From Candidatus Poribacteria bacterium (lineage in GTDB: Bacteria; Poribacteria; WGA-4E; WGA-3G), in the NCBI GenBank assembly GCA_963663765.2, contig CAXXUA010000013.1, positions 96,001 to 160,000 on the forward strand: a stretch of 64,000 nt of DNA. Direction: 5' to 3'. This document shows positions 26,185 to 39,893 of the stretch, piece after piece. The position numbers and the translations under genes were made by a program. Position 1 is the first letter of the stretch. Every line of letters begins with the position of its first letter. Below the pieces are notes generated by a model. The model was not told the DNA's origin, made no database searches, and saw only the letters and a list, made by a program, of their open reading frames with translations.

Positions 26185-27543
26185 CTACTTCCGGACATAA
26201 CCTGTTGTTCCGTTCCGTTCCTCTTTATGTGCTTCCCAATAATCTTCAATACCTTGTCGCCATGTTTGTGCTGCTTCTGTCAACTCAGCGGTGATTTGTG
26301 GGTATTCGTCTTTCAGATTTGTGGTTTCTCCCATATCTGTTTCAAGGTCTGCAAGGTGTACATCGTCCTCTGAGGGTGCTCCTTCAACCAATTGACCATT
26401 TAGGACTAATTTCCACTTTCCGCGTCGCATTGCAGTCTGTTTTCCCATTTCCCAAAAAATATCTGTGTGTGGTGTGAATTGGCCGTCACAGACAACAGGT
26501 AATTGATTGAGACCATCAAGTTCATAATTGGAAAGATCACCATCAGCTGCGGATAAGAAAGTCGGAAAGACATCCATTGCCGCACCATAAAGATTTGATA
26601 AAGTTAATACGTTACCGGGCGGAATTTCTTTTGGCCACTTCATAATCCCTGGAGAACGGATTCCCCCTTCATAAAGACTGAATTTGTGTCCTTTGAGTTT
26701 TCCTGCGCTGCCCCCATAATATGGGTCTTGTGTGCCATCTAACCAATTGCGTGTCTCGCGCGAGGGACCGTTGTCACTTTGGAAATAGGAGAATGTGTTT
26801 TCTGCGACACCGAGTCGTTCAAGTTCTGCAAATATTTCCCCCACACTATCATCCACTGCACTTAGCATTGCAGCCATAATTTGTCTATCCCACGGCAAGT
26901 TTGGAAACCTGTCAACGTATTCCTGTGGTGCGTGCATCGGATAATGTGGTGCGTTGTATGGCACATATAGGAAAAACGGTTTGTCTTGTTCAACTGCTTT
27001 TCGGATATATCTGACGGCATATTCAGTGATCAGTTCAGTAAAATACTCCCCGTTTCGGTATATTTCTTCACCGTTTTCCCAGAGGTCATGGGTTTGGTCA
27101 AAATCTGGTCGTCCTAATGCCCAATAAAAGATGTGTGAATAGAAATCAATGCAGCCAGCCATGAATCCGAACCAATCATCAAACCCGTGGTCTTCAGGTC
27201 TTGAACCCTCTGCGAGTCCAAGATGCCATTTGCCGGACATTGCAGTGTAATATCCAAGTTCCTTGAGTGCGGTTGCGATCGTTGGAACAGATAGTGGTAA
27301 TCCAGTAGCAGTACGATGTCCTGCTAAGATAGATCGTACACCTGCATGGCAAGGGTATCGTCCTGTCAATAATGCAGCACGGGAAGGTGAACAGACAGGT
27401 GAGTTGGAGTACCAATCAGAGAATTGGATACCTTCTTTTGCCATTCTATCCAGATGGGGTGTCTTGAAGTCTGTAGCACCCATACAGGAGAGGTCACCAT
27501 AGCCTTGGTCATCTGTTAGAAATATAATGAAATTGGGTTGCAT
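26185..27543 (-). CDS. Formylglycine-dependent sulfatase (no signal peptide)
   Basis: PNFIIFLTDDQG, CSPSRAALLTGRY, GKWHLG, PHYP and SDNG. Confidence 0.93.
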   Translation of the reverse strand: MQPNFIIFLTDDQGYGDLSCMGATDFKTPHLDRMAKEGIQFSDWYSNSPVCSPSRAALLTGRYPCHAGVRSILAGHRTATGLPLSVPTIATALKELGYYTAMSGKWHLGLAEGSRPEDHGFDDWFGFMAGCIDFYSHIFYWALGRPDFDQTHDLWENGEEIYRNGEYFTELITEYAVRYIRKAVEQDKPFFLYVPYNAPHYPMHAPQEYVDRFPNLPWDRQIMAAMLSAVDDSVGEIFAELERLGVAENTFSYFQSDNGPSRETRNWLDGTQDPYYGGSAGKLKGHKFSLYEGGIRSPGIMKWPKEIPPGNVLTLSNLYGAAMDVFPTFLSAADGDLSNYELDGLNQLPVVCDGQFTPHTDIFWEMGKQTAMRRGKWKLVLNGQLVEGAPSEDDVHLADLETDMGETTNLKDEYPQITAELTEAAQTWRQGIEDYWEAHKEERNGTTGYVRK

Positions 27544-27607
27544 TTTACCTCCGTTGTGTTCATGCTGTTGTAAATTTGACGTACTGCTTATGAGTAAAAT
27601 TACAAGA

Positions 27608-29632
27608 TTATTTTAGAATCACCATTCGTCGGGTTGCTTTAAATTTGCCTGCTTGAAGTGTATAGACATAAACGCCACTTGCAACAGGTTCGCCTGTAGA
27701 GTTACGTCCATCCCAATGCGCTGCACGGGACTGTGTGCGATATGTACCCGCTACCTGATGTCCTATTGCTAACTGTCGGACGCGTTGTCCTTTCATGTTA
27801 TAAATGTCTATTTTCACATTTGCATCTGTTCCTAAGTCGTACGGTATCCATGTCTCTGGATTGAAAGGATTTGGATAGTTTGGCAGAAGGATTGTTTTAT
27901 CTGGAATTATGTTATCAAGTAATCCTTTTAAAGTGGCAATACCCTTTTTTAGGACTTCAGACCCATCGTCTACTAAGCGTGCCTCTATGATCCATTTTTC
28001 TATTTGACCCAGATGTTTTGAGTTAGTTTTTCTCTGTGTTGTGGGTGCTGCTGGATTTGTAGTCTCGCTAAAATGTGCTGCAACTATTAGCAAGTCAAGT
28101 ATATTAACTCTACCATCTTGGTTTACGTCAACCTTTGAATTTTCTGGTGAATCTGCACCAAAACTTCCCGCTATAACTAAGAGATCTTGAATATCAACGA
28201 TCCCGTCATTGTTTATATCCCAAGCTAGAGATGGTGCTTTAAGAGGTTCTTTCTGGATGTGGGGTAGTGCTTGTTGCCACCCATCGTTAAGCCATTTACC
28301 AAGTGTATCAACAAGTTCGCTGTTTTCTGAAAGATTAGCAATATTAATAGTTTCATTTGGGTCGTTGTAGTAATCATAGAGTTCCTTTCCGCGTTCACCA
28401 TTGTTCCCCCATTCGGTGTATCGAAATCTGTCTGTCCGTATTGAACGTCCTGAAGTACTTCCTCTGTTGAGTTGACTAAAAGCTGCAGATTTCCACTCAC
28501 GAGTTGGCTCATTGAGAACGGGTTTAAAACTAATGCCTTCTAATTCTGGTGCTATTGGTATTTGACACACATCACATAGTGTTGGATAGATGTCAATCAG
28601 TTCAACCAAGGCATCTGTTTTCGTACCGGGGTGAGTTTGTCCTGGGATACTAGCGATTAACGGTGAGCGGAGAGATACCTCAAACAGAGTGTTTTTTCGC
28701 CAAGTTCCATGCTCTCCAAGATGAAATCCATGGTCACCACAAAAAATAATAACTGTTTTCTCAGTTAGGTTTAATGCGTCAAATTGGTCAAGGAGACGTC
28801 CCACTTGTGCATCCATATAACTTGTTGAAGCGGCATAAGCTCGAATTAGTTCTAATGTTTTTTCTTCTGATATCGGGGTATCTCTATCAGGAATATCTGA
28901 ATACAGTCGAAAGTAACCTAATTGGTTGTGTGCGAATATTGGAGAATTCATAGGAAAACTTGAAGTAACTGGTAAGCTGAAAGCTTCGGTATCGTATAAA
29001 TCATAATATTTGCTGGGTGCGTAGAAGGGTAAGTGGGGTTTATCAAATCCAACAGATAAAAAAAATCGTTTATCTTTGATATCAACTAAGAGCTCTTCTA
29101 TACGTTTTGCCGTTTTTCCATCACTTAACTCATCGTCTGTTACGTCAAGGGAACGCCATGATGGACCTGAAATAAAAGTTCCCCAAATCTGACCGATTTT
29201 ACCTTCAGAGTGGGTATAATAACCTTGGTTTCCGAAGTATTGTTGTAGGGTTGTTATACCAGGTAATGTCGTTCCAAAATCGATCAAATTATTTTGAAAT
29301 CCGGTTGTATCTGGTCGCATTCCACTAATTATAGATGCGCGAGAGGGCCCACATAGTGGAAATTGGCAATATGCGCGGTTGAAGAGTGTGCCTCTCTGGG
29401 CGAGTCTATCAATATTTGGTGTGTGCATCTCTTGATGTCCATAGCATCTAAGTAGAGGGCGCAAGTCATCTACAATGATGAACATCACGTTGTATTGCCC
29501 TTGGGTATCTGCTTGTAGTTTGGGTATAAGTCCCGTTGTGAATGCAGCCGCGCCTGCCTTCAATCCTGTTGAGATGAAGCCCCGCCGAGTAAAAGACCGT
29601 GAGAATGGCTTGTGTCGTACCGTCTCTTTCAT
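27608..29632 (-). CDS. Tat-exported iduronate-2-sulfatase-like sulfatase with dockerin-like and FlgD-like C-terminal domains (sulf1)
   Basis: TRRGFI signal, DDLRP, CGPSR, KPHLPF and DHGFHLGEH; two DxNxDG repeats; PNYPNPFNPETWIPY. Confidence 0.9.
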   Translation of the reverse strand: MKETVRHKPFSRSFTRRGFISTGLKAGAAAFTTGLIPKLQADTQGQYNVMFIIVDDLRPLLRCYGHQEMHTPNIDRLAQRGTLFNRAYCQFPLCGPSRASIISGMRPDTTGFQNNLIDFGTTLPGITTLQQYFGNQGYYTHSEGKIGQIWGTFISGPSWRSLDVTDDELSDGKTAKRIEELLVDIKDKRFFLSVGFDKPHLPFYAPSKYYDLYDTEAFSLPVTSSFPMNSPIFAHNQLGYFRLYSDIPDRDTPISEEKTLELIRAYAASTSYMDAQVGRLLDQFDALNLTEKTVIIFCGDHGFHLGEHGTWRKNTLFEVSLRSPLIASIPGQTHPGTKTDALVELIDIYPTLCDVCQIPIAPELEGISFKPVLNEPTREWKSAAFSQLNRGSTSGRSIRTDRFRYTEWGNNGERGKELYDYYNDPNETINIANLSENSELVDTLGKWLNDGWQQALPHIQKEPLKAPSLAWDINNDGIVDIQDLLVIAGSFGADSPENSKVDVNQDGRVNILDLLIVAAHFSETTNPAAPTTQRKTNSKHLGQIEKWIIEARLVDDGSEVLKKGIATLKGLLDNIIPDKTILLPNYPNPFNPETWIPYDLGTDANVKIDIYNMKGQRVRQLAIGHQVAGTYRTQSRAAHWDGRNSTGEPVASGVYVYTLQAGKFKATRRMVILK

Positions 29633-29750
29633 AAGTGATTTCCTTATTTATAGTTTGTATCAAATGACCCCATGAGTTATACTATTAGTATGCGTTATAC
29701 TAACGAGTAGATGTATTCGGATCCCCGTTAATCTATTCATGGAGGTCAAC

Positions 29751-30551
29751 ATGAATCGCAAAAAGGATACCGCCTACGGTATTAACCGGCTCGAATCCAA
29801 GAATGCCAGAGTCGCTATTATTCAGAAGATTTCAGCAGACTTAAATCTAATGCCTATCGTTGCTGAAGCCTACTATAAACAGATTTCTACTTACTTTGAA
29901 CAACATACCGATGTGAAACTGACATCAGGACAAATCTGCTACGAGGCTGTCGCCGCTGAGGAACCCGCAGGAAAACACATCGCTTTAGCGAAAAAAATCT
30001 CCTGTCGGCTCACTCTCAATGACACAAACGCCGATCTTGAAGTCTTAGCGAATTATGGTCTCGCAGGACTCAGACGCCATCGGATCCTCCGATTGACTAA
30101 AGAAACTTACGACCAAGATGCCTTGCTGAGCTATGAAGATTTAGCTGTCTTATTAACCACCAGTCCTTCTACAGTCAAACGTGACATACGTCAGTTGAAA
30201 CAGGAAGGATATTTCGTTATGACGCGCGGGACGAAACACGACATGGGTACCGGCACTTCTCATAAGACGCAGATCTTGGAGCTGTATTTCAAAGTCTATA
30301 CCTTTACCGAAATGGAGCAAAAAACGAACCACAGCGAACGGGCTGTCTACCGCTACTTGAGAGACTTCACACAAGTTGCTACGCTCCACCATCAGGGGTT
30401 CCCTAACGCTCAGATACGCCTGATTACCCATCTCTCTGACCGGTTGATCCGTGAGTATCTCTCGCTGTTCAAGGAATATCAACACACCGATCGCATGACC
30501 CAACTCCTTCACCCAGAACCAGAGGACACAAAAAAGGGGGAACTCTCATGA
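29751..30551 (+). CDS. DUF1670-like protein A (intact)
   Basis: GGAGG RBS before ATG 29751; YDQDALLSYEDLA…STVKRDI…TRG…HDMG…SHK…HSERAVYRY. Confidence 0.75.
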   Translation: MNRKKDTAYGINRLESKNARVAIIQKISADLNLMPIVAEAYYKQISTYFEQHTDVKLTSGQICYEAVAAEEPAGKHIALAKKISCRLTLNDTNADLEVLANYGLAGLRRHRILRLTKETYDQDALLSYEDLAVLLTTSPSTVKRDIRQLKQEGYFVMTRGTKHDMGTGTSHKTQILELYFKVYTFTEMEQKTNHSERAVYRYLRDFTQVATLHHQGFPNAQIRLITHLSDRLIREYLSLFKEYQHTDRMTQLLHPEPEDTKKGELS

Positions 30552-31432
30552 GCAAACCTCTAACACGCACGCAAATCAACCAGAAAACATTCAGACGCAT
30601 CAACGATAAGTCTCTACGACAGTTGCTTATCCATCGCTTTCTCAATGACTACGGGTATGACAAAGGCGAAGTCACTGCCACCGCCATTGTTGATGATATT
30701 CTCAAGACTGTTGAGGACTATTTCGTAATTACCCTCCCCTTGGAGAAACTCGCCACCGGTGATCAACTCACAGATGAGCGTTTCCTGAGTTATGGACAAC
30801 TCGTTTGGATGGCTGTCCCTATTGATGAACATCCAGAAAGAGGGAAGTCCATCGTCAAAACCCGGATGAAACCCATCATCTTGACCTATCTCGCTACCGA
30901 GGATATTGAATCTTTTCAAAACGGATTTACCTCCCGACAACTGTGAATCAATCGCTTTGTCCACTGGTGTCATCAAGTTTATGACCAAGGTGCTTTATTG
31001 ACACAACTCGATTTAGCTGTCTTGCTGAACGTCTGCGATGCAGTTGTCTGTGATTATGTCAATGAATGGCAAAAAACCACTGGCGACATCTTGCCCACTC
31101 GGGGCAACATCCATGATTTATCAGGTGCCATTACCCACAAAAAAGAGATCATCACGCTCTATATTCAAGGACATCTTACTCCCAGAATCGCCGCAAAAAC
31201 CAAACATTCTAAGGAGGCAGTTGACCGATACATTCGCGATTATGAGAGCGTCAAAGTCGTTCGGAAAGCAACCGCAGATATTGACCAAATCTCACAGATC
31301 ACACAACTTTCTAAACGCGTTATCACTCAATATCTCGACCTTATTCCACAGCACCAACTTCAAGCGATGGATGCAAACCTTACCAATTCATCTGCAAACG
31401 ATGCAACAACACGCCAAGGAGAAGAACAATGA
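30548..31432 (+). pseudogene. DUF1670-like protein B with one nonsense codon
   Basis: ATGA overlap with A. TGA at 30944-30946 where copy 2 has CGA; the same frame continues (YDQGALLTQLDLA…PTRG…HDL…THK…HSKEAVDRY). Confidence 0.78.
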
Positions 31433-31501
31433 TACTAAACCTCCTGATCCACCAGACGAACATTATTCAGCAAAACCGAGGCAGTTTCCTTGAAAATAGG
31501 A

Positions 31502-31529
31502 TTGACAACTGCTACTTGTTTTCTATACT
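31502..31529 (+). promoter_or_regulatory. Sigma70-like promoter inside the element's 3' region
   Basis: TTGACA-16-TATACT; copy 2 has TTGATA-17-TAAACT (35606-35634) with a diverged spacer. Confidence 0.65.
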
Positions 31530-31534
31530 CTAAG

Positions 31535-31650
31535 AATGTTTACCGTTAATCGCATCATTATCTCAAAGAGAATGATAGCGATTCCAACTTAACCCACTCA
31601 TCAACGATGGTTGCGAAGCTAATAAACATCAGCATTCCAGTTATCCTATG
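31535..31650 (+). ncRNA. Candidate structured ncRNA of the DUF1670 element
   Basis: Enclosing helix TGTTTA…TAAACA; hairpin AATCGC-ATCATT-TCTC-AAA-GAGA-ATGAT-GCGATT; second AACC…CATC-AAC-GATG-GTT hairpin. Conserved in copy 2. Confidence 0.4.
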
Positions 31651-31661
31651 GTCATATGATA

Positions 31662-33737
31662 CTATTTTTTTATTACCATTTTGCGTGTAATTTTCGATTG
31701 CCCCGCGCTAAGTGTATAGAGATAGATACCACTTGCGACAGGTTCACCAGCAGAATTATATCCATCCCAATGAGCGGAGCGCGACTGTGTACGATATGTG
31801 CCTGCTGTTTGAAAACCAACTTTAAGTTGTCGGATAGTTTCACCTTTTAAATTGTAGATATGGATATTGACATCTGCATCTTGGCCTAAGTCGTAAGGAA
31901 TCCATGTCTCCGGATTAAAAGGATTAGGATAGTTTGGCAATAGTGCCGTTTCCTTTGGAATCACGCGGTTAAGCAATCCTTCTAAGTTAGCAATACCACG
32001 CTGATAGACGTGGAAGTAATCATTAACATTATGTGCTTTTGTGATCCATTCTTCTATACGGTCAAGATCTTCTAGTTGAACGTGGGTAGATTTTGGAGAG
32101 GCAGCTGTGCTACTGGTTTCAGTAAAATGTGCTGCAACAATAAGTAAATCAAGGATATTTACACGCCCATCTCTGTTCACATCAACTTTTGGATGTTCCG
32201 GGTTTACCTTGCCAAAGTTATCGGAAATAAGAACAAGGTCTGATATGTCTATAACACCATCATTATTTATATCCCAAGGTGGCGTTCGTGGAACATAGTT
32301 GTGGTCTATATCTGGTAAAGCTCCGATCCAACCCGCTTGAAGTTGTTCACCAAGGTCAGTCACAAGTTCTTTATTTTCAGGACTTTCTACGATATTGACG
32401 GTTTCATTTGGGTTCTCCTGATAATCATATAACTCAATGCCATTTTCTCCATTGTTTCCCCACTCGGTGTATCGATATTGATCGGTGCGCATGGTATATC
32501 CATCCACAGTACCTCGCTTTAGTTGACTAAACGCTGCAGTTTTCCAGGGGCGTGCCGGTTCTTCAATGACAGGTAGCATAGTAATACCTTCAAGTTCTGT
32601 TAGGATCGGCAGTTGACAAGCATCACATAATGTCGGATAGATATCAACAAGTTCAACTAAGGCATCAGTACTTACATTACGATGAGTTTGCCCTGGTATA
32701 CTAACTATCAAAGGCGATCGTACTGAATCTTCAAAAAGGGTGTTTTTTCTCCAGAGTCCGTGCTCCCCGAGGTGAAACCCATGGTCTCCCCAGAAAACGA
32801 TAACCGTATTTTCAGTAAGACCTAATACATCTAATTGATCTAATACACATCCTATTAATGCATCTACATAACTAATATTTGCAGCATAAGCCAGGGTTAA
32901 TTCCAACGTTTTTTCTTCAGAGAATGGAGGATAATTTGTAATATCTTGGTAAGCCCTCATGCCTTTTGGGTTCTCAGCTATTATCGGGGCATTTCTTGGA
33001 AGGCTCGTATCAGAGGGTGCTGTGAAGTCTTGTGTCGTATATAAATCAAAGTATTTCGTTGGTGCATAGAAGGGCAAGTGTGGTTTGTTAAAACCGACCG
33101 CAAGGAAAAAATTCAAGTCTTTTATCTCTGTCAAAACTTCTATAGCAGCATTTGTAATCTTACCATCTTCCAGTTCATCATCGGCAACATCAAGAGCTTG
33201 CCAAGAGGGAGACATTGTTTTATCAATATATTTCCAACGTTCCCTCCAAATTGGCTGGCTCCATGAAAGTTCATCTTCCCATGCGGCATCCCCGTGTGCA
33301 ACTTTACCGACAGACCGAGTATGATAGCCGTAGTTTTTAAAATGTTGTGGTAATGTTATAACGTCTGGGAGCACCTGTCGAAAATCTGTAGGATTATCAT
33401 GTACACCCGTTGTATCTGGTCGCAGCCCAGTGAGTACTGAAGCCCGTGAAGGATTGCAAACTGGAAATTGGCAGTAGGCGCGGTTGAAAAGCGTGCCACG
33501 TTGTGCTAGTCTATCAATGTTAGGCGTATGCATCTTTGAGTGTCCATAGCATCCTAACATTGGGCGAAGATCGTCAACAGCAATGAATAAAACATTGTAT
33601 TGTCCTTCAGCATTAGCATGGCGTTTGGGGAGTAAACCTGTCGTGAAAGCAGCTGCACCTGCTTTTAAACCTGTTGAGAGAAAATCGCGTCGGGTAAAAG
33701 TTCGAGAAAATTTCTGTTGTTGTGTAGCATCTTTCAT
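31662..33737 (-). CDS. Tat-exported IDS-like sulfatase with dockerin/FlgD-like tail (sulf2)
   Basis: TRRDFL, CNPSR, KPHLPF and WGDHG; same C-terminal domains as sulf1. Confidence 0.9.
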   Translation of the reverse strand: MKDATQQQKFSRTFTRRDFLSTGLKAGAAAFTTGLLPKRHANAEGQYNVLFIAVDDLRPMLGCYGHSKMHTPNIDRLAQRGTLFNRAYCQFPVCNPSRASVLTGLRPDTTGVHDNPTDFRQVLPDVITLPQHFKNYGYHTRSVGKVAHGDAAWEDELSWSQPIWRERWKYIDKTMSPSWQALDVADDELEDGKITNAAIEVLTEIKDLNFFLAVGFNKPHLPFYAPTKYFDLYTTQDFTAPSDTSLPRNAPIIAENPKGMRAYQDITNYPPFSEEKTLELTLAYAANISYVDALIGCVLDQLDVLGLTENTVIVFWGDHGFHLGEHGLWRKNTLFEDSVRSPLIVSIPGQTHRNVSTDALVELVDIYPTLCDACQLPILTELEGITMLPVIEEPARPWKTAAFSQLKRGTVDGYTMRTDQYRYTEWGNNGENGIELYDYQENPNETVNIVESPENKELVTDLGEQLQAGWIGALPDIDHNYVPRTPPWDINNDGVIDISDLVLISDNFGKVNPEHPKVDVNRDGRVNILDLLIVAAHFTETSSTAASPKSTHVQLEDLDRIEEWITKAHNVNDYFHVYQRGIANLEGLLNRVIPKETALLPNYPNPFNPETWIPYDLGQDADVNIHIYNLKGETIRQLKVGFQTAGTYRTQSRSAHWDGYNSAGEPVASGIYLYTLSAGQSKITRKMVIKK

Positions 33738-33764
33738 AAGTGATTTCCTTACTATATATAGTTT

Positions 33765-35766
33765 GTATCAAATGACCCCATGAGTTATACTGTTAGTATG
33801 AGTTATACTAACGAGTAGATGTCCTCGGATCCCGTTAATCTATTCCTGGAGGTCAACATGAACCGCAAAAAGGATACCGCGTACGGTATTACCGGCTCGA
33901 ATCCAAGAATGCCAGAGCCGTTATTATTCAGAAGATATCATCAGACTTTAATCTAATGCCTATTGTTACTGAAGCCTACTATAAACAGATTTCTACTTAT
34001 TTTGAACAACATACCGATGTGTGAATGAAATCAGGACAAATCTGCTACGAGGCTGTCGCTGCTGAGGAACCCGCAGGTTAACACATCGCTTTAGCAAAAA
34101 AATCTCCTGTCGGCTCACCCTCAATGACACAAACGCCGATCTTGAAGTCTTAGCGACTTATGGACTTGCAGGACTCAGACGACATCGGATCCTCCGATTG
34201 ACCAAAGAAGCCTATGACCAAGATTCTTTACTGAGCTATGAAGATTTAGCTGTCTTATTAACCACCAGTCCTTCTACAGTCAAACGCGACATTCGTCAGT
34301 TGAAACAGGAGGGATATTTCGTTATGACGCGCGGGACGAAACACGACATGGACCCCGGCACTTCTCATAAGACGCAGATCTCGGAACTGTATTTCAAAGC
34401 CTATACCTTTACCGAAATCAAGCAAAAAACGAACGACAGCGAACGGGCTGTTTACCGCTGCTTGAGAGACTTCACACAAGTTGCTACGCTCCATCATCAA
34501 GGATTCCCTAACGGTCAGATACGTCTCATTTTCCATCTCTCTGATAAGCTAATCCGCGAGTATCTCTCGCTATTCAAGGAATACCAACACACTGACCGCA
34601 TGACCCAACTCCTTCACCCAGAACCTGAGGACACAAAAAAGAGGGACCTCTCATGAGCAAACCTCTAACACGCACGCAAATCAACGAGAAAAAATTCAGA
34701 CGCATCAACGATAAGTCCTTACGACAGTTGCTTATCCATCGCTTTCTCAATGACTACGGGTATGACAAAGGCAAAGTCACTGCCACCGCCATCGTTGATG
34801 ATATTCTCAAGACCGTTGAGGACTATTTCGTAATTACCCTCCCTTTTGAGAAACTCGCCACCGGTGATCAACTCACTGATGAGCGTTTCCTGAGTTATGG
34901 ACAACTCGTTTGGATGGCTGTCCCTATTGATGAACATCCAAAAAGAGGGAAGTCCATCATCAAAACTCAGATGAAACCCATCATCCTGACCTACCTCGCT
35001 ACTGAGGATATTGAATCTTTTAGAAATGGTGTTACCTCACGACAACTACGAATCAATCGCTTGGTCCGCTGGTGTTATCAAGCTTATGACCAAGGTGCTT
35101 TATGGACACAACTCGACTTAGCTTGTCTTGCTGAACGTCTGCGATGCAGTTGTCTGTGATTATGTCAATGAATGGCAAAAAGCCACTGGCGACATCTTGC
35201 CCACTCGGGGCAACATCCATGATTTATCGGGTGCTATTACCCACAAGAAAGAGATCATCACGCTCTATCTTCAAGGACATCTCACCCCCAGTATTGCTGC
35301 AAAAACCAAACATTCTAAGGAGGCAGTTGACCGATACATTCGCGATTATGAGAGCGTCAAAGTCGTTCGGAAAGCAACCACAGATATTGACCAAATCTCA
35401 CAGATCACACGACTTTCTAAACGCGTTATCACTCAATATCTCGACCTTATTCCACAGCACCAACTTCAAGCTATAGATGCAAACCTTACCAATTCATCTA
35501 CAAACGATGAAACAGGACACCAAGGAGAAACACAATGATATCCTAACTCCCTGTTCCAGACGAACTTTATTCAGCAAAACAGAGATAGTTTCCCTGAAAA
35601 TAGGGTTGATAACCATCCCCATCTTTGCTAAACTTTAGAAACGTTTATCGCTAACCGCATCATTTCTCAAAGAGAATGGTAGCGATTCCAACTTATCCCA
35701 CTCATTAACGATGGTTGCGAAGCTAATAAACATCAGCATTCCAGCTATCCTATGGTCATTTGATAC
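33765..35766 (+). mobile_element. DUF1670 element (copy 2), both genes frameshifted
   Basis: Perfect 13-bp TIR GTATCAAATGACC…GGTCATTTGATAC. ORF A (from 33858) has several indels; ORF B (34653-35538) has +1 T at ~35124. Confidence 0.8.
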
Positions 35767-37819
35767 TATTTTAGAATTACCATTCGCCGCGTTGCTTTGA
35801 AATTCCCTGCTTGAAACGTATAGACATAAACGCCACTTGCAACGGGTTCGTCTGTAGAGTTACGTCCATCCCAATGTGCTGCACGGGACTGTGTGCGATA
35901 TGTACCAGCGACCTGTTGTCCCATTGCTAACTGTCGGACGCGTTGTCCTTTCATGTTATAAATGTCTATTTTCACATTTGCATCTGTTCCCAAGTCATAA
36001 GGTATCCATGTTTCTGGGTTGAAAGGATTTGGATAGTTTGGCATAAGGATTGTTTTATCTGGAATTATGTTATCAATTAAACCTTCTAAAGTGGTAATAC
36101 CCTTTTTTAGGACTTCAGATCCATCGTCTACTAAGCGTGCTTGTGTGAGCCATTTTTCAATTTGACTCAGATTTTTTAGTTAGTATTTATATGTGTTGTG
36201 GGTGCTGCTGGATTTGTAGTCTCGGTAAAATGTGCTGCCACTATTAGCAAGTCAATGATGTTAACCTTGCCATCCTTGTTTACGTCGACTTTAGGATTTT
36301 CAAGTGACGATTTACCGAAGTTATTTGAGATTAGAATTAGATCTTGGATATCAACGACACCATCACTATTTATATCCAATCTTTTATTGAGTGGAACATT
36401 GGGATGGTCGTGTATATCCGGTAAAGCTCCCCGCCAACCTGCCTTAAGCTGTTCACTAAGACGTGCGACAAGTTCAGCGTTTTCTGGTAGATTTACGATG
36501 TTATAATCAGAATACGGATCAATGTTAAAATCGTAAAGTTCTCGTAGCTGCCCCCACTCCGTGTACCGATATCGTTCAGTGCGAATTGAGTGTCCTTGTT
36601 TAAGTTGACTAAAGACACCGTTTTTCCAAGCAAGTGTCGGTTCCTGAATCACAGGTAACATGCTTAATCCCTCTAATTCTGGCAAAATAGGCAAGTGACA
36701 TGCATCACATAACGTCGGGTAGATATCAACGAGCTCAACAAGTGCTTCTGTTTTTTCTCCAGGCGCAGCCTGTCCTGGTACGCTGACAATCATTGGAGAA
36801 CGAAGTGCAGTTTCAACGATGATGTTTTTTCCCCATGTTCCATCTTCACCAAGATTATATCCGTGATCTCCACAAAATGCAATAACCGTTTTTTCTGTGA
36901 GTCCGAGTGAGTCCAATTGGTCTAAAACACGTCCTATTTGTGTATCTGTATAACTTGTTGCAGCTGCATAAGCTCGAGTTAACTCCAAGATTTTCTCATA
37001 CGAAAGAGACGTATAATCTGGAGGAATATCTGCAAAAGGTCGGATTTCGTTCCAAGTTGGTGGCATTATGTCGGAAGGGAGTTCTCCTGAGAGGGCAGGT
37101 AAATTAAAAGTTTTGTTCTTGTATAATTCGAAATATTTCTTTGGTGCGTTGTAGGGTAAGTGTGGTTTAAAAAAACCGACAGCTAAAAAAAACTGTTGAT
37201 TTTTAATCTGTTCCAGAACTTCAACAGCTCGTTTTGCTACTTGACCATCTTTGAGGTCGTCGTCTTCCACGTCGAGTGCCTTCCAAGAAGGGGTCGTCTC
37301 GTAATCAAGTGGGTACCATGGCGGTCTCCATGAAGGTGCACTCCATGAATTTTCATCGTCTTGGAAATCTGGCGTGTGAAATATTCGACCAACTGATTGT
37401 GTATAGTAACCGTGTGATTTGAAATGTTGTGAGAGTGTGATAACTTGGGGCACTGTCTCACGAAAATAATCCCTATTATTTAGTACACCCGTTGTCTGAG
37501 GTCTTAGTCCGGTAATAATAGAAGTTGGAGATGGGCTACAGAGCGGATATTGACAATAAGCATGATCAAAAAGTGTCCCGCGTTGTGCGATTCTATCTAT
37601 GTTCGGTGTGTGCATCTCTTGATGACCATAGAAGCAAAGTAGAGGGCGTAAATCATCAACCATGATTAACAAGACATTATAATGTTCTTCTCCTGAAGCG
37701 AGGTGTTTAGGTAATAGTCCTGTCGTAAGAGCTGCGGCACTCGCTTTCAAACTTGTTGAGAGAAAGTCACGCCGGGTAAAAGGTCGTGAGAATGTTTTGA
37801 GTTCTGTAGTCTCTTTCAA
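35766..37819 (-). pseudogene. Tat-exported IDS-like sulfatase (sulf3), frameshifted, with motif CSPSP
   Basis: 1-bp deletion at ~36175 relative to sulf1 separates the FlgD-like tail; the CxPxR arginine is replaced by Pro. Confidence 0.8.
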
Positions 37820-37829
37820 ACGTTTCCCT

Positions 37830-39893
37830 TTATTTTGTAACTATCATTTTGCGTGTAGCTTTAGCCTGCCCAGCACCAGCATGGAGTGTATAGAAGTAGA
37901 TACCGCTTGCCACAGGTTCACCTGCGGCGTTGCGTCCATCCCAATGTGCGGCACGTGTTTGTGTCCGGTATGTGCCAGCGGTTTGAAATCCTACCTTGAG
38001 ATGTCGAATAGATTCCCCTTTTAAATTATAAATCTCAATACTGACATCGGTGTCGTTTGCCAAGTCGTAAGGTATCCACGTTTCCGGATTAAATGGATTC
38101 GGATAATTCGGTAACAACACTGTTCTTTCTGGTATAACGCTACTAAGCAATGCTTCTAGGACGGTGATACCCCGCTGATAAATATCGGTGTCAATTTTTA
38201 CTGTGTGTGCTTCAGCGAGCCATTCTTCAATGCGGTCAACATGTTTCAGCAGTATAGCAGTGTGTTTTGATGGGGCTGCTGTATTACTGGATTCAGTGAA
38301 ATGTGATGCAACGATAAGCAAGTCAATGATGTCAACACGACCATCTCGGTTCACATCAACTTTCGGATCATCCAGGTTCATTTTACCGAAGTCGTTAGAA
38401 ATGAGAATAAGGTCTTGAATATCAACAATACCATCATCATTTATATCATAAGGTTGAGTAGGTGGAACATAGGGATGGTTATGCATATCTGGCAACGCTC
38501 TGTACCAACCTGCACTGAGTTTTTGACTGAGGTGTGCGATAAGTTCAGTGTTTTCCGGTAGATCAACTTGATTTATAGTTCCATCTGGATCAATATGATA
38601 ATCGTACAGTTCTTTTCGTTCTCCAGATTCTGTATATCGGTATTGTTTCGTGCGAATAGAGCGGGAATTTCCGAGTTGACTAAAAGCAGCAGTTTTCCAT
38701 GGGCGTGTTGGTTCCTCTATGACAGGTACCATACTTAAACCTTCAAGTTCTGGTGGAATAGGTAAATTGCACAGATCACATAACGTCGGATAGATATCGA
38801 CTAACTCAACAAGTGCATCTGTTCTTTCACCGACTGCGTTCTGTTCAGGAAAACTTACAATCAAAGGTGAATGGAGGGAAACATCAAAAATAGTTCTTTT
38901 CCCAAATAGTCCATGTTCCCCCAAATGGAATCCGTGGTCCCCAGCAAAAACGATTACCGTATTTTCTGTTAGATTAAGAGCATCCAATTGGTTCAAAATT
39001 CGTCCTACTTGGGCATCCATGTAACTTGTTGATGCTGCATACGCTCGGATCAACTCTAATGTTTTCTTTTCAGTAAGCGGTGCATCTCCGACAGGGATAT
39101 CTGAATAATTTCTGAGCTCATGCCACCGGTGTAAAACTATTCGTGGAACATTATCAAAAATTTGAGTATCATACAATTCAAAATATTTTTGGGGTGCGTG
39201 GAACGGTAAATGAGGCCTGACAAAGCCAACAGCAAGTAAAAACTGACTATCTTTAACATCTTCTAAAACACCTACCGTGTGTTTCGCGATTGCACCATCC
39301 TCTAACGCGTCGTCATTTACATTAAGAGCTTGCCAAGACGGAACACCTCCAAAAGCTCTCCATTTTGGCCACCAAAAAGGAACACTCCAAGAATTGTCAT
39401 TTTGCAACGGTGGAACACCGTTCTTAATTTCTTCACTGGTACGGGTATTGTGCCTAATTTTCCCAATAGAACGCGTATGATAACCGTGGGTTTTGAAATG
39501 TTGCGGAAGCGTGACTGCGTCAGGTACTGTCTCACGAAAATCAGCGTAATTATCATGAACACCAGTTGTATCTGGACGCAAACCGGTAAGGATTGAAGCA
39601 CGAGAAGGATTACAAAGTGGAAATTGACAATAAGCACGGTTGAACAACGTTCCCCGTTGTGCTAATCTATCAACGTTAGGAGTGTGCATTTCTTGATGAC
39701 CATAACAGCCTAACAAAGGGCGCAAATCATCTACCATGATAAATAGGACATTATATTGTCCCTGAGCTTTTGCGGAGAGATTTGGCAAAAGTGCAGTTGT
39801 GAAAGCAGCTGCACCTGCTTTCAGACTTGTTGAAAGAAAGTTACGTCGGGTTAAAGATCGTGAGAATGTTTTCTGTTCAATTACCTCTTTCAT
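37830..39893 (-). CDS. Tat-exported IDS-like sulfatase with dockerin/FlgD-like tail (sulf4)
   Basis: TRRNFL, CNPSR, RPHLPF and GDHGFHLGEH. Confidence 0.9.
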   Translation of the reverse strand: MKEVIEQKTFSRSLTRRNFLSTSLKAGAAAFTTALLPNLSAKAQGQYNVLFIMVDDLRPLLGCYGHQEMHTPNVDRLAQRGTLFNRAYCQFPLCNPSRASILTGLRPDTTGVHDNYADFRETVPDAVTLPQHFKTHGYHTRSIGKIRHNTRTSEEIKNGVPPLQNDNSWSVPFWWPKWRAFGGVPSWQALNVNDDALEDGAIAKHTVGVLEDVKDSQFLLAVGFVRPHLPFHAPQKYFELYDTQIFDNVPRIVLHRWHELRNYSDIPVGDAPLTEKKTLELIRAYAASTSYMDAQVGRILNQLDALNLTENTVIVFAGDHGFHLGEHGLFGKRTIFDVSLHSPLIVSFPEQNAVGERTDALVELVDIYPTLCDLCNLPIPPELEGLSMVPVIEEPTRPWKTAAFSQLGNSRSIRTKQYRYTESGERKELYDYHIDPDGTINQVDLPENTELIAHLSQKLSAGWYRALPDMHNHPYVPPTQPYDINDDGIVDIQDLILISNDFGKMNLDDPKVDVNRDGRVDIIDLLIVASHFTESSNTAAPSKHTAILLKHVDRIEEWLAEAHTVKIDTDIYQRGITVLEALLSSVIPERTVLLPNYPNPFNPETWIPYDLANDTDVSIEIYNLKGESIRHLKVGFQTAGTYRTQTRAAHWDGRNAAGEPVASGIYFYTLHAGAGQAKATRKMIVTK

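Follow-up and report, generated by a model that had tools for sequence, protein, structure and literature searches.

In a 64,000-nucleotide (nt) stretch from a Candidatus Poribacteria bacterium (positions 96,001 to 160,000 of contig CAXXUA010000013.1, assembly GCA_963663765.2; hereafter the window, with positions counted from its first letter), a tandem array of sulfatase genes carries, between its genes, two copies of an element of about 2.0 kb that encodes two proteins of the DUF1670 family, A and B, on the strand opposite to the array. The copies are delimited by the 13-mer GTATCAAATGACC, which has four occurrences in the window versus 0.13 expected by chance (29657 to 29669 and 33765 to 33777 on the plus strand; 35754 to 35766 and, with one mismatch, 31650 to 31662 on the minus strand). 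These occurrences make up two inverted pairs and hence two units, copy 1 (2006 bp) and copy 2 (2002 bp, both measured from outer repeat edge to outer repeat edge), which are 92.1% identical to each other, lie ~4.1 kb apart at equivalent positions of the array, and are both antisense to it. Both are also broken, copy 1 in open reading frame (ORF) B and copy 2 in ORFs A and B. The initial annotation of this DNA had described them as a candidate mobile element family with two translationally coupled DUF1670 paralogues between 13-bp inverted repeats and no canonical transposase; each part of that description is upheld by the results given below, and we consider it very likely that the units are copies of a mobile, insertion sequence (IS)-like element.

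The element recurs at unrelated loci of the source genome. A whole-genome search with copy 1 matched 10 places, including ones on three other contigs, and the genome as a whole holds 4 copies that are full and 8 that are partial or reduced to an end. The partial forms include a copy truncated at its 5' end, a left-end fragment of 360 bp, a copy with an internal deletion (369 bp from tip to tip), and right-end fragments, and the 13-mer search located three solo right repeats. In the full copies on contigs 2 and 3, A (270 amino acids [aa]) and B (294 aa) are both intact. The nearest relative of copy 1 is the contig 2 copy (95.1%) and that of copy 2 is the contig 3 copy (94.3%); the window copies are the least alike pair among the four full copies, and the sulfatase genes that flank them are 65.6% identical. 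Since each window copy is closer to a copy elsewhere and the flanks are so much less alike than the copies, the two represent independent insertions.

Of 41 related genomes, 11 encode proteins that match the DUF1670 model PF07900, and in every case these form A and B pairs; congeners hold 0 to 9 copies. Several genomes hold near-identical copies, which points to recent movement: four at 100% identity at different loci in genome G035, six at 100% identity, likewise at different loci, in an unclassified bacterium, seven at 99.2 to 100% in G050, and nine with a median identity of 99.8% in G051. Many homologues lie on metagenome contigs of ~2.0 kb, as is seen with collapsed repeats. In the contigs of four sequencing runs (Logan contigs), the summed depth over the element was several-fold that of its flanks and was highest over both ends, and internal-deletion joints were present (29758>31638 [X3] and 29991>31452 [X2]). 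In the sulfatase arrays of relatives, the alignment of the left flank ends and that of the right flank starts on the same TATTT, and all six of the empty sites fetched from these arrays hold the 5-mer once. The family is found in Poribacteria, Calditrichota, a metagenome-assembled genome (MAG) labelled Bacteroides, Gemmatimonadota, and Methanosarcina (a control genome), and the same 13-bp repeats bound elements that are only 72 to 73% identical in DNA. Copies at unrelated loci, the same sharp boundaries, empty sites, and terminal inverted repeats, all of them features of insertion sequences, are thus present.

The true ends of the element lie outside the repeats, in the order ATAGTTT, left 13-bp repeat, interior, right 13-bp repeat, TATTT. 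With the repeat alone as the probe, TATTT directly followed the right repeat in 32/32 and 35/35 elements, and in 34 of the latter 35, ATAGTTT lay directly before the left repeat; of the 58 loci behind this second set, 23 yielded no repeat pair, through cut contigs or a diverged left repeat. A lineage with 60% protein identity keeps the right repeat with TATTT and has AAAGTTT as its left tip. As both tips are carried by the element, the boundaries of the two window copies are those given in Table 1. The near-duplicated 6-mers that the initial annotation had pointed out on either side of the repeats are therefore present, but they are no duplication of the target, the left one (TAGTTT) being part of the 7-mer ATAGTTT and the right one containing the TATTT tip.

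The bases to the left of the element belong to the target and follow a narrow rule. Among 68 distinct sites, surveyed with a probe that included the tips, so that only the left-flank figures are unbiased, the left 5-mer was TACTT (28 sites), TATTT (23 sites), TTTTT (6 sites), CACTT (5 sites), GATTT (2 sites), or one of four others (1 site each). Position -1 is T in 68/68 and position -2 is T in 66/68, and in 45/68 the bases from -3 to -5 of the left flank are not those of the right tip, with the difference always in the same direction. Insertion is thus directly 3' of a T-rich 5-mer with the consensus TAYTT and an invariable final T, and the orientation is constant. The right 5-mer is constant while the left one varies, and there is no target-site duplication: the left side is native, the right side belongs to the element, and only TT is common to both, so that the junction can be drawn anywhere within this shared TT.

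The left flank preserves the original end of the target gene. On the gene strand, the six bases to the left of the element read as a Lys codon plus a stop codon in 56/69 sites (AAG TAA, AAA TAG, AAA TAA, AAG TAG, and AAG TGA), and the TATTT tip provides the interrupted gene with a new Lys codon and stop (AAA TAG), so that the host protein stays unchanged. At copy 1, the Lys codon and TAG stop of the gene that we call sulfatase B now come from the tip together with base 31662. Fifty-two of the 68 sites, recognized with a regular expression, are ends of genes for C-terminal-domain proteins (FlgD_ig/Por_Secre_tail domains, type-IX-like), and the element is always antisense to them. On the downstream side, positions +5, +6, +8, +10, and +11 (A, T, A, C, and A) are kept together in 47/69 sites; these bases are also the coding sequence of the conserved ...KMLILK end, and reading of them by the element itself cannot be told apart from that conservation. 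An exact 7-mer of the repeat occurs in the downstream flank of only 8/69 sites. Homing by gene conversion through the C-terminal-domain sequence was considered and rejected, as identity drops sharply after the TATTT tip in the G050 copies and the left flanks are unrelated.

A second kind of target provides a control for the assignment of the right tip. In the lineage of G035 and G026, the insertion lies in the loop of a hairpin resembling repetitive extragenic palindromic (REP) sequences. All 50 of the 50 perfect unoccupied hairpins of G035 have TTTTT at this position, and the five occupied ones carry TTTTT to the left of the insertion and TATTT to its right; hence, TATTT belongs to the element. 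The hairpin itself, of 30 nt, has 77 copies in G035 and 23 in G026. Some of its copies form evenly spaced runs (e.g., four copies 159 nt apart near 3456649 and runs with a spacing of ~193 nt near 1894819), which suggests that a larger unit is repeated in tandem.

The features of the two window copies and their target genes are collected in Table 1. Copy 1 runs from the 7-mer tip and left repeat through ORF A, the broken ORF B, and a noncoding right end to the right repeat and TATTT tip. The region from 26185 to 39893 holds at least five paralogous sulfatase genes in tandem on the minus strand, most of them with a dockerin and a FlgD_ig/Por_Secre_tail domain, and the intergenic gaps are 10 to 64 nt wherever no element is present. 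The target ORF of copy 2 is detached from a 547-aa sulfatase ORF at 36176 to 37819. The 300 nt from 35767 to 36066 match the 3' end of sulfatase A (27609 to 27908) at 93% identity, although the genes are otherwise only ~60 to 73% alike, which looks like gene conversion between the segments encoding the C-terminal domain. On contig 2, ~700 nt beyond the left end of the copy there (L002:4207-5005), lies a different 800-bp repeat with many congener matches at 75 to 80% (six or more each in G006 and G052), probably another insertion sequence.

Table 1. Positions of the element copies, their parts, and their target genes in the window
Feature	Position	Strand	Basis
Native end of sulfatase B (Lys codon + TAA), displaced to the left of copy 1	29644..29649	-	Empty sites; Lys + stop rule
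Copy 1, true boundaries, 2018 bp	29650..31667	+	Empty sites in relatives; sequence common to all copies
Element-borne left tip ATAGTTT, copy 1	29650..29656	+	34/35 elements; missing from empty paralogous and orthologous sites
Left 13-bp inverted repeat, copy 1	29657..29669	+	13-mer search
ORF A, DUF1670 protein, 270 aa from first ATG	29739-30551	+	
ORF B, DUF1670 paralogue, in-frame TGA at 30944-30946	30548-31435	+	
Outward sigma-70-like promoter motif, TTGACA-16 nt-TATACT, ~135 nt from right tip	31502..31529	+	Consensus match
Right 13-bp inverted repeat, copy 1, one mismatch	31650..31662	+	13-mer search
Element-borne right tip TATTT, copy 1	31663..31667	+	Constant whatever the target 5-mer
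Target gene of copy 1: sulfatase B, dockerin + FlgD_ig/Por_Secre_tail C-terminal domain	31662..33737	-	
Copy 2, true boundaries, 2014 bp, both genes frameshifted	33758..35771	+	
Remains of ORF A in copy 2, with several frameshifts and stops; last 152 codons open	33858..34656	+	
Remains of ORF B in copy 2, with a frameshift near 35128-35159	34653..35538	+	
Target of copy 2: 92-codon C-terminal-domain ORF (FlgD_ig/Por_Secre_tail)	35766..36044	-	

Both genes of the element belong to DUF1670. A matches PF07900 with an E value of 4.6e-60 (203.2 bits; gathering score, 25 bits), the two halves of the broken B score 35.5 and 151.2 bits, and the pieces of copy 2 score 71.2 and 120 bits; in an intact copy, A and B are paralogues with 30% identity over 255 aa (E = 1e-26). 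The likely start of ORF A is the ATG at 29751, 5 nt after a GGAGG, which gives a protein of 266 aa, the length of most homologues. ORF B begins in an ATGA overlap with ORF A, and the codon at which it is interrupted in copy 1 encodes Arg in intact copies. This codon is stopped in two copies of the same subgroup, as TGA in copy 1 and as TAA in the truncated copy (contig 3:571655-573155), which suggests either that a defective copy was itself copied or that the two share a CpG hotspot. Both ORFs are intact in 33 distinct elements; they overlap by ATGA in 23 of these and by slightly more in 3, are 2 nt apart in 4, and are arranged otherwise in 3. The ratio of nonsynonymous to synonymous substitution rates (dN/dS) is 0.07 to 0.13 for A (15 of 28 pairs usable, the rest being saturated) and 0.04 to 0.17 for B (17 of 28), values which indicate that both are under strong purifying selection and make a further overlapping gene unlikely. 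A search for hidden ORFs on either strand yielded an alternative-frame candidate that was rejected, since it is interrupted in the intact contig 2 copy and synonymous sites vary freely.

Searches with Pfam and NCBIfam (E up to 1) recovered no DDE, DEDD, HUH, serine recombinase, tyrosine recombinase, or nuclease family in A or B, and among the Pfam models, there was no match to PF01548 (DEDD_Tnp_IS110), PF02371 (Transposase_20), Phage_integrase, resolvase, or Y1_Tnp. The secondary matches were to winged-helix and transposase-type helix-turn-helix (HTH) families. PHROGs gave only regulator and DnaD-like HTH matches for A, and PADLOC gave no match. The relatives of A and B form 1218 representative clusters at E up to 0.001 and are labelled "hypothetical protein," "biotin operon repressor," or "DUF1670 domain-containing protein" in the source annotations; the Pfam family is without an assigned function, and we found no mention of DUF1670 or PF07900 in the literature searched. 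Some relatives are fusions, with two modules in ~520 aa or three in ~940 aa, and the existence of such multimodule proteins argues that A and B work together. Eleven of the long proteins were scanned, and none has an added catalytic domain.

A model of A built from an alignment of 83 sequences (~30% identity; pLDDT, 90, versus 40 for single-sequence AlphaFold) comprises short helices, a beta-hairpin (residues 65 to 92), a 30-residue helix (96 to 125), a winged helix (126 to 162), a conserved loop, and two three-helix bundles (175 to 257). In the same alignment, R163 is invariant and G164, G170, H175, H198, Y206, F210, and Y240 are at least 90% conserved. The initial annotation had singled out this R..H..H..Y tail as a possible catalytic tyrosine module; its conservation is evident, but in the model, it is folded as HTH modules. 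VIA-align recovered only DNA-binding domains (TrpR-like, NiaR, Mga, DesR, Mor/C, and weakly MarR and DnaD-NTD; best Z, 6.7), with the winged helix covered at 101 to 169, the HTH bundles at 173 to 251, and a weak DnaD-NTD- or MarR-like match over 58 to 169; residues 173 to 251 superpose on the TrpR-like, DesR, and Mor/C HTH domains with Z of 5.2 to 6.7. Foldseek with the model against PDB gave no match at E up to 0.001, a PDB sequence search gave matches of the HTH type only (the best, at E = 3e-5, being a designed repeat protein), and an ESM Atlas search with residues 5 to 125 gave no usable match. Aligned with hhalign to five tyrosine recombinases of the source genome, A reached a probability of 0.2% and an E value of 0.27, which is not significant; the sole alignment, equally without significance, places H198 on the conserved His and Y206 on the invariant Tyr of these enzymes. 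Conservation of the tail is in itself no proof of catalysis, because the ends that the proteins presumably bind are equally conserved. The predicted complex of A with B (score, 0.25; mark, 0.32) was counted neither for nor against an interaction. Two tyrosine recombinase genes of the source genome, one with an in-frame TGA, lie on contig 12 (14431-14970 and 31505-32002); this 33-kb contig also holds duplicated sequence and may be a plasmid or an integrated element.

The noncoding right end carries an outward-facing sigma-70-like promoter motif that agrees with the consensus at 11 of 12 positions and is the only promoter-like site on the plus strand of the element. Thirty-three distinct right ends retain it, among them those of a lineage with 72% identity, whereas the element of G034 misses the -35 criterion. 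In the integrated form, such a promoter would fire antisense into the host gene. No structured RNA is claimed for this region: Rfam gave no match to 29500 to 31800 at E up to 1, and RNAalifold found no consensus for the right-end transcript with all 18 sequences and a weak hairpin with one compensatory pair with the 17 Poribacteria sequences. Words common to the target flanks and the noncoding ends, of the kind expected of a guide, were a 10-mer in G034 (L013) and a 7-mer in G026, at the same position of the element. The 10-mer lies in the right flank of the target and, inside the element, at the -35 of the outward promoter, with ~0.02 such matches expected by chance. Nothing consistent was seen in the other lineages, and the matches may be chance or a common protein-binding site.

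If the two ends were joined, they would form a 13-12-13 site (right repeat, TATTT, ATAGTTT, left repeat) in which TT is flanked by a 5-bp inverted pair. When metagenomes were scanned for a right repeat followed within 0 to 30 nt by a left repeat, two contigs matched. In one (L118:1541-1578), a right repeat with TATTT is followed without a gap by a full element, beginning with its 7-mer and left repeat, in just this 13-12-13 arrangement; the site is at the end of a C-terminal-domain gene, and no further part of a right end lies upstream. In the other (L117:6303-6350), the 13-mers are the arms of a longer perfect palindrome with a 22-nt spacer, and the stretch read holds no DUF1670 genes. Mining of sequencing data for circle junctions, as the initial annotation had suggested, found neither joined ends nor an exact-excision joint in the contigs of the four sequencing runs.

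The best explanation of these observations, and one to which we give moderately more credence than doubt, is that the units are decayed copies of an autonomous IS of ~2.0 kb from a family not yet described, whose two DUF1670 proteins bind the ends and the target and perform or recruit an insertion without duplication. That A and B are needed for the movement is likely. The two proteins, with their winged-helix and HTH modules and an N-terminal part of helices and a beta-hairpin, would bind both the target and the conserved ends, and through them a conservative exchange, specific for site and orientation, would take place at TT. This exchange would probably proceed via joined ends (right repeat, 12-nt spacer, left repeat), across which the outward promoter would read into A and B. 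The junctions constrain the chemistry. Exchange is confined to at most two bases, with the left side native and the right side from the element, which does not fit a staggered cut with repair, i.e., a DDE-type duplication. The geometry formally fits the 2-nt overlap of a serine recombinase or IS607, the short core of IS110/IS1111, or the one-strand cleavage of IS200/IS605, and the element encodes none of the enzymes of these families.

That A and B also cut the strands themselves, and do not rely on a recruited host enzyme, is a possibility to which we give a little less than even weight; still more tentatively, they may constitute a new class of recombinase, built of HTH modules with an Arg/His/His/Tyr active center and acting through duplication-free, orientation-specific insertion on a 2-nt overlap. 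The rival in which the pair only recognizes the ends and the target and builds a complex, with a host enzyme cutting and joining, seems to us rather unlikely, although the whole model of A consists of modules of the DNA-binding and oligomerization type, none of the long relatives scanned has a fused catalytic domain, and the invariant polar residues could merely contact the strongly conserved ends. Given the spread of the family from Poribacteria to Methanosarcina, the helper would have to be near-universal, and we know of no host recombinase that carries out duplication-free insertion with a 2-nt overlap at many different sites. The initial annotation had leaned toward a tyrosine recombinase-like tail, a 13-6-13 core, and coupling sequences as in Tn916. 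The conservation of R163, G164, H175, H198, and Y206 and the placing of H198 and Y206 in the hhalign alignment speak for such a module, but the alignment is not significant, Pfam recovers no integrase match, and the tail superposes on HTH domains. Tyrosine recombinases exchange strands 6 to 8 bp apart, and Tn916-like coupling sequences vary with the donor; junctions that share TT only do not fit the former, nor do a constant left 7-mer and right 5-mer fit the latter, and the 6-mers taken for a duplication are element sequence. We therefore regard this reading as quite improbable.

In another account, the element is nonautonomous and is moved in trans by the transposase of another element that recognizes the same ends, and the DUF1670 genes would be passengers or regulators; deletion derivatives and solo ends do exist. 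Yet a search of the source genome with the whole element recovered only its own copies and fragments, and there, besides these copies and a few remnant ends, no other repeat terminates in the 13-mer. In addition, 33 distinct elements from different phyla have both genes intact, coupled, and under purifying selection, and a target duplication such as IS3 makes is lacking, so this account has very little probability. Smaller still, and practically negligible, is the probability that the pair is immobile and arose from one segmental duplication of regulator genes inside the sulfatase array, the outcome by which the initial annotation was to be judged wrong. The spacing of the two copies and their equivalent positions would suit it; their nearest relatives on contigs 2 and 3, the low identity of the flanking genes, the copies on three other contigs, the empty sites in relatives, and the identical copies at different loci in other genomes do not.

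Several observations weigh against our preferred explanation, that of an autonomous IS moved by its DUF1670 pair through joined ends. No catalytic fold or motif was recovered in A or B by Pfam, NCBIfam, PDB sequence, Foldseek, or VIA-align searches, with residues 1 to 100 barely covered by the fold searches. A joined-end or tandem form is absent from 176 Poribacteria genomes and from the contigs of the four sequencing runs, and the arrangement in L118 may be an insertion beside a leftover end. The outward promoter is a consensus match only. As for the target rule, the left flank is not Lys plus stop in 13/69 sites, and at a GATTT site in G021, the reconstructed gene is without a stop. Finally, the copies of the source genome differ by 5 to 8% and both window copies are broken, with no sign of activity there.

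If the DUF1670 pair does move the element, a widespread family now labelled hypothetical or repressor gains a function, and a whole IS family becomes visible to annotation pipelines. If A and B are a recombinase of a new class, they would add to the five groups of transposases that the IS literature names (DDE, DEDD, HUH, serine, and tyrosine). Insertion that is base exact, in one orientation, and free of duplication and that rebuilds the gene end is the behavior wanted of a small site-specific integration tool, and here it would be accomplished with ~560 residues of protein without a known catalytic fold. In Poribacteria, genes that lie in arrays and encode secreted sulfatases or other C-terminal-domain proteins are marked and set apart by the element, whose outward promoter may fire antisense into them.

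Among known systems, the IS110/IS1111 elements invite comparison. As described in connection with IS621 by Durrant et al. (2024; PMC11208160), these insert in a sequence- and orientation-specific manner at a short common core without duplication, may target REP sequences, have long noncoding ends with a sigma-70 promoter that reads across joined ends, and are typically without terminal inverted repeats. Measured against that description, the DUF1670 element is similar in its duplication-free and orientation-specific insertion, short core (TT), REP targets, and long noncoding ends with an outward sigma-70-like motif. It differs in encoding no PF01548 or PF02371 protein, in its perfect 13-bp inverted repeats, and in having two HTH proteins in place of one recombinase. 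As for a circle and a bridge RNA like those of IS110/IS1111, Rfam gave no match, covariation in the right-end transcript was weak, and the run contigs and 176 genomes showed no joined ends.

Two further families resemble the element in geometry. Serine recombinases, including that of IS607, make no target duplication and cross over on a 2-nt overlap; likewise, insertion of the DUF1670 element is duplication-free and its crossover can be placed on a 2-nt overlap (TT), but Pfam recovers no resolvase domain, and the N-terminal part of the A model is made of helices and one beta-hairpin and is not of the alpha/beta type. IS200/IS605 elements sit 3' of a short target word, have a similar word as their own right tip, cause no duplication, and use hairpin-loop targets. 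The formal geometry of the DUF1670 element is the same, with a short word on the left, a similar word at the right tip, and hairpin loops among its targets, whereas there is no Y1 HUH transposase, and terminal inverted repeats take the place of subterminal hairpins.

In its choice of site, the element comes close to systems of otherwise different makeup. Insertion of Tn7 at attTn7 (TnsD pathway) requires TnsABC and duplicates 5 bp, and the integrases that use tRNA genes are tyrosine or serine recombinases whose elements carry bases that restore the 3' end of the gene. The DUF1670 element has no duplication, no TnsABC, and no tyrosine or serine recombinase. It shares with both the use of a "safe harbor," in one orientation at a conserved gene end and with the product left intact, and with the tRNA-targeting integrases the carriage of bases that restore the end of the gene into which it has inserted.

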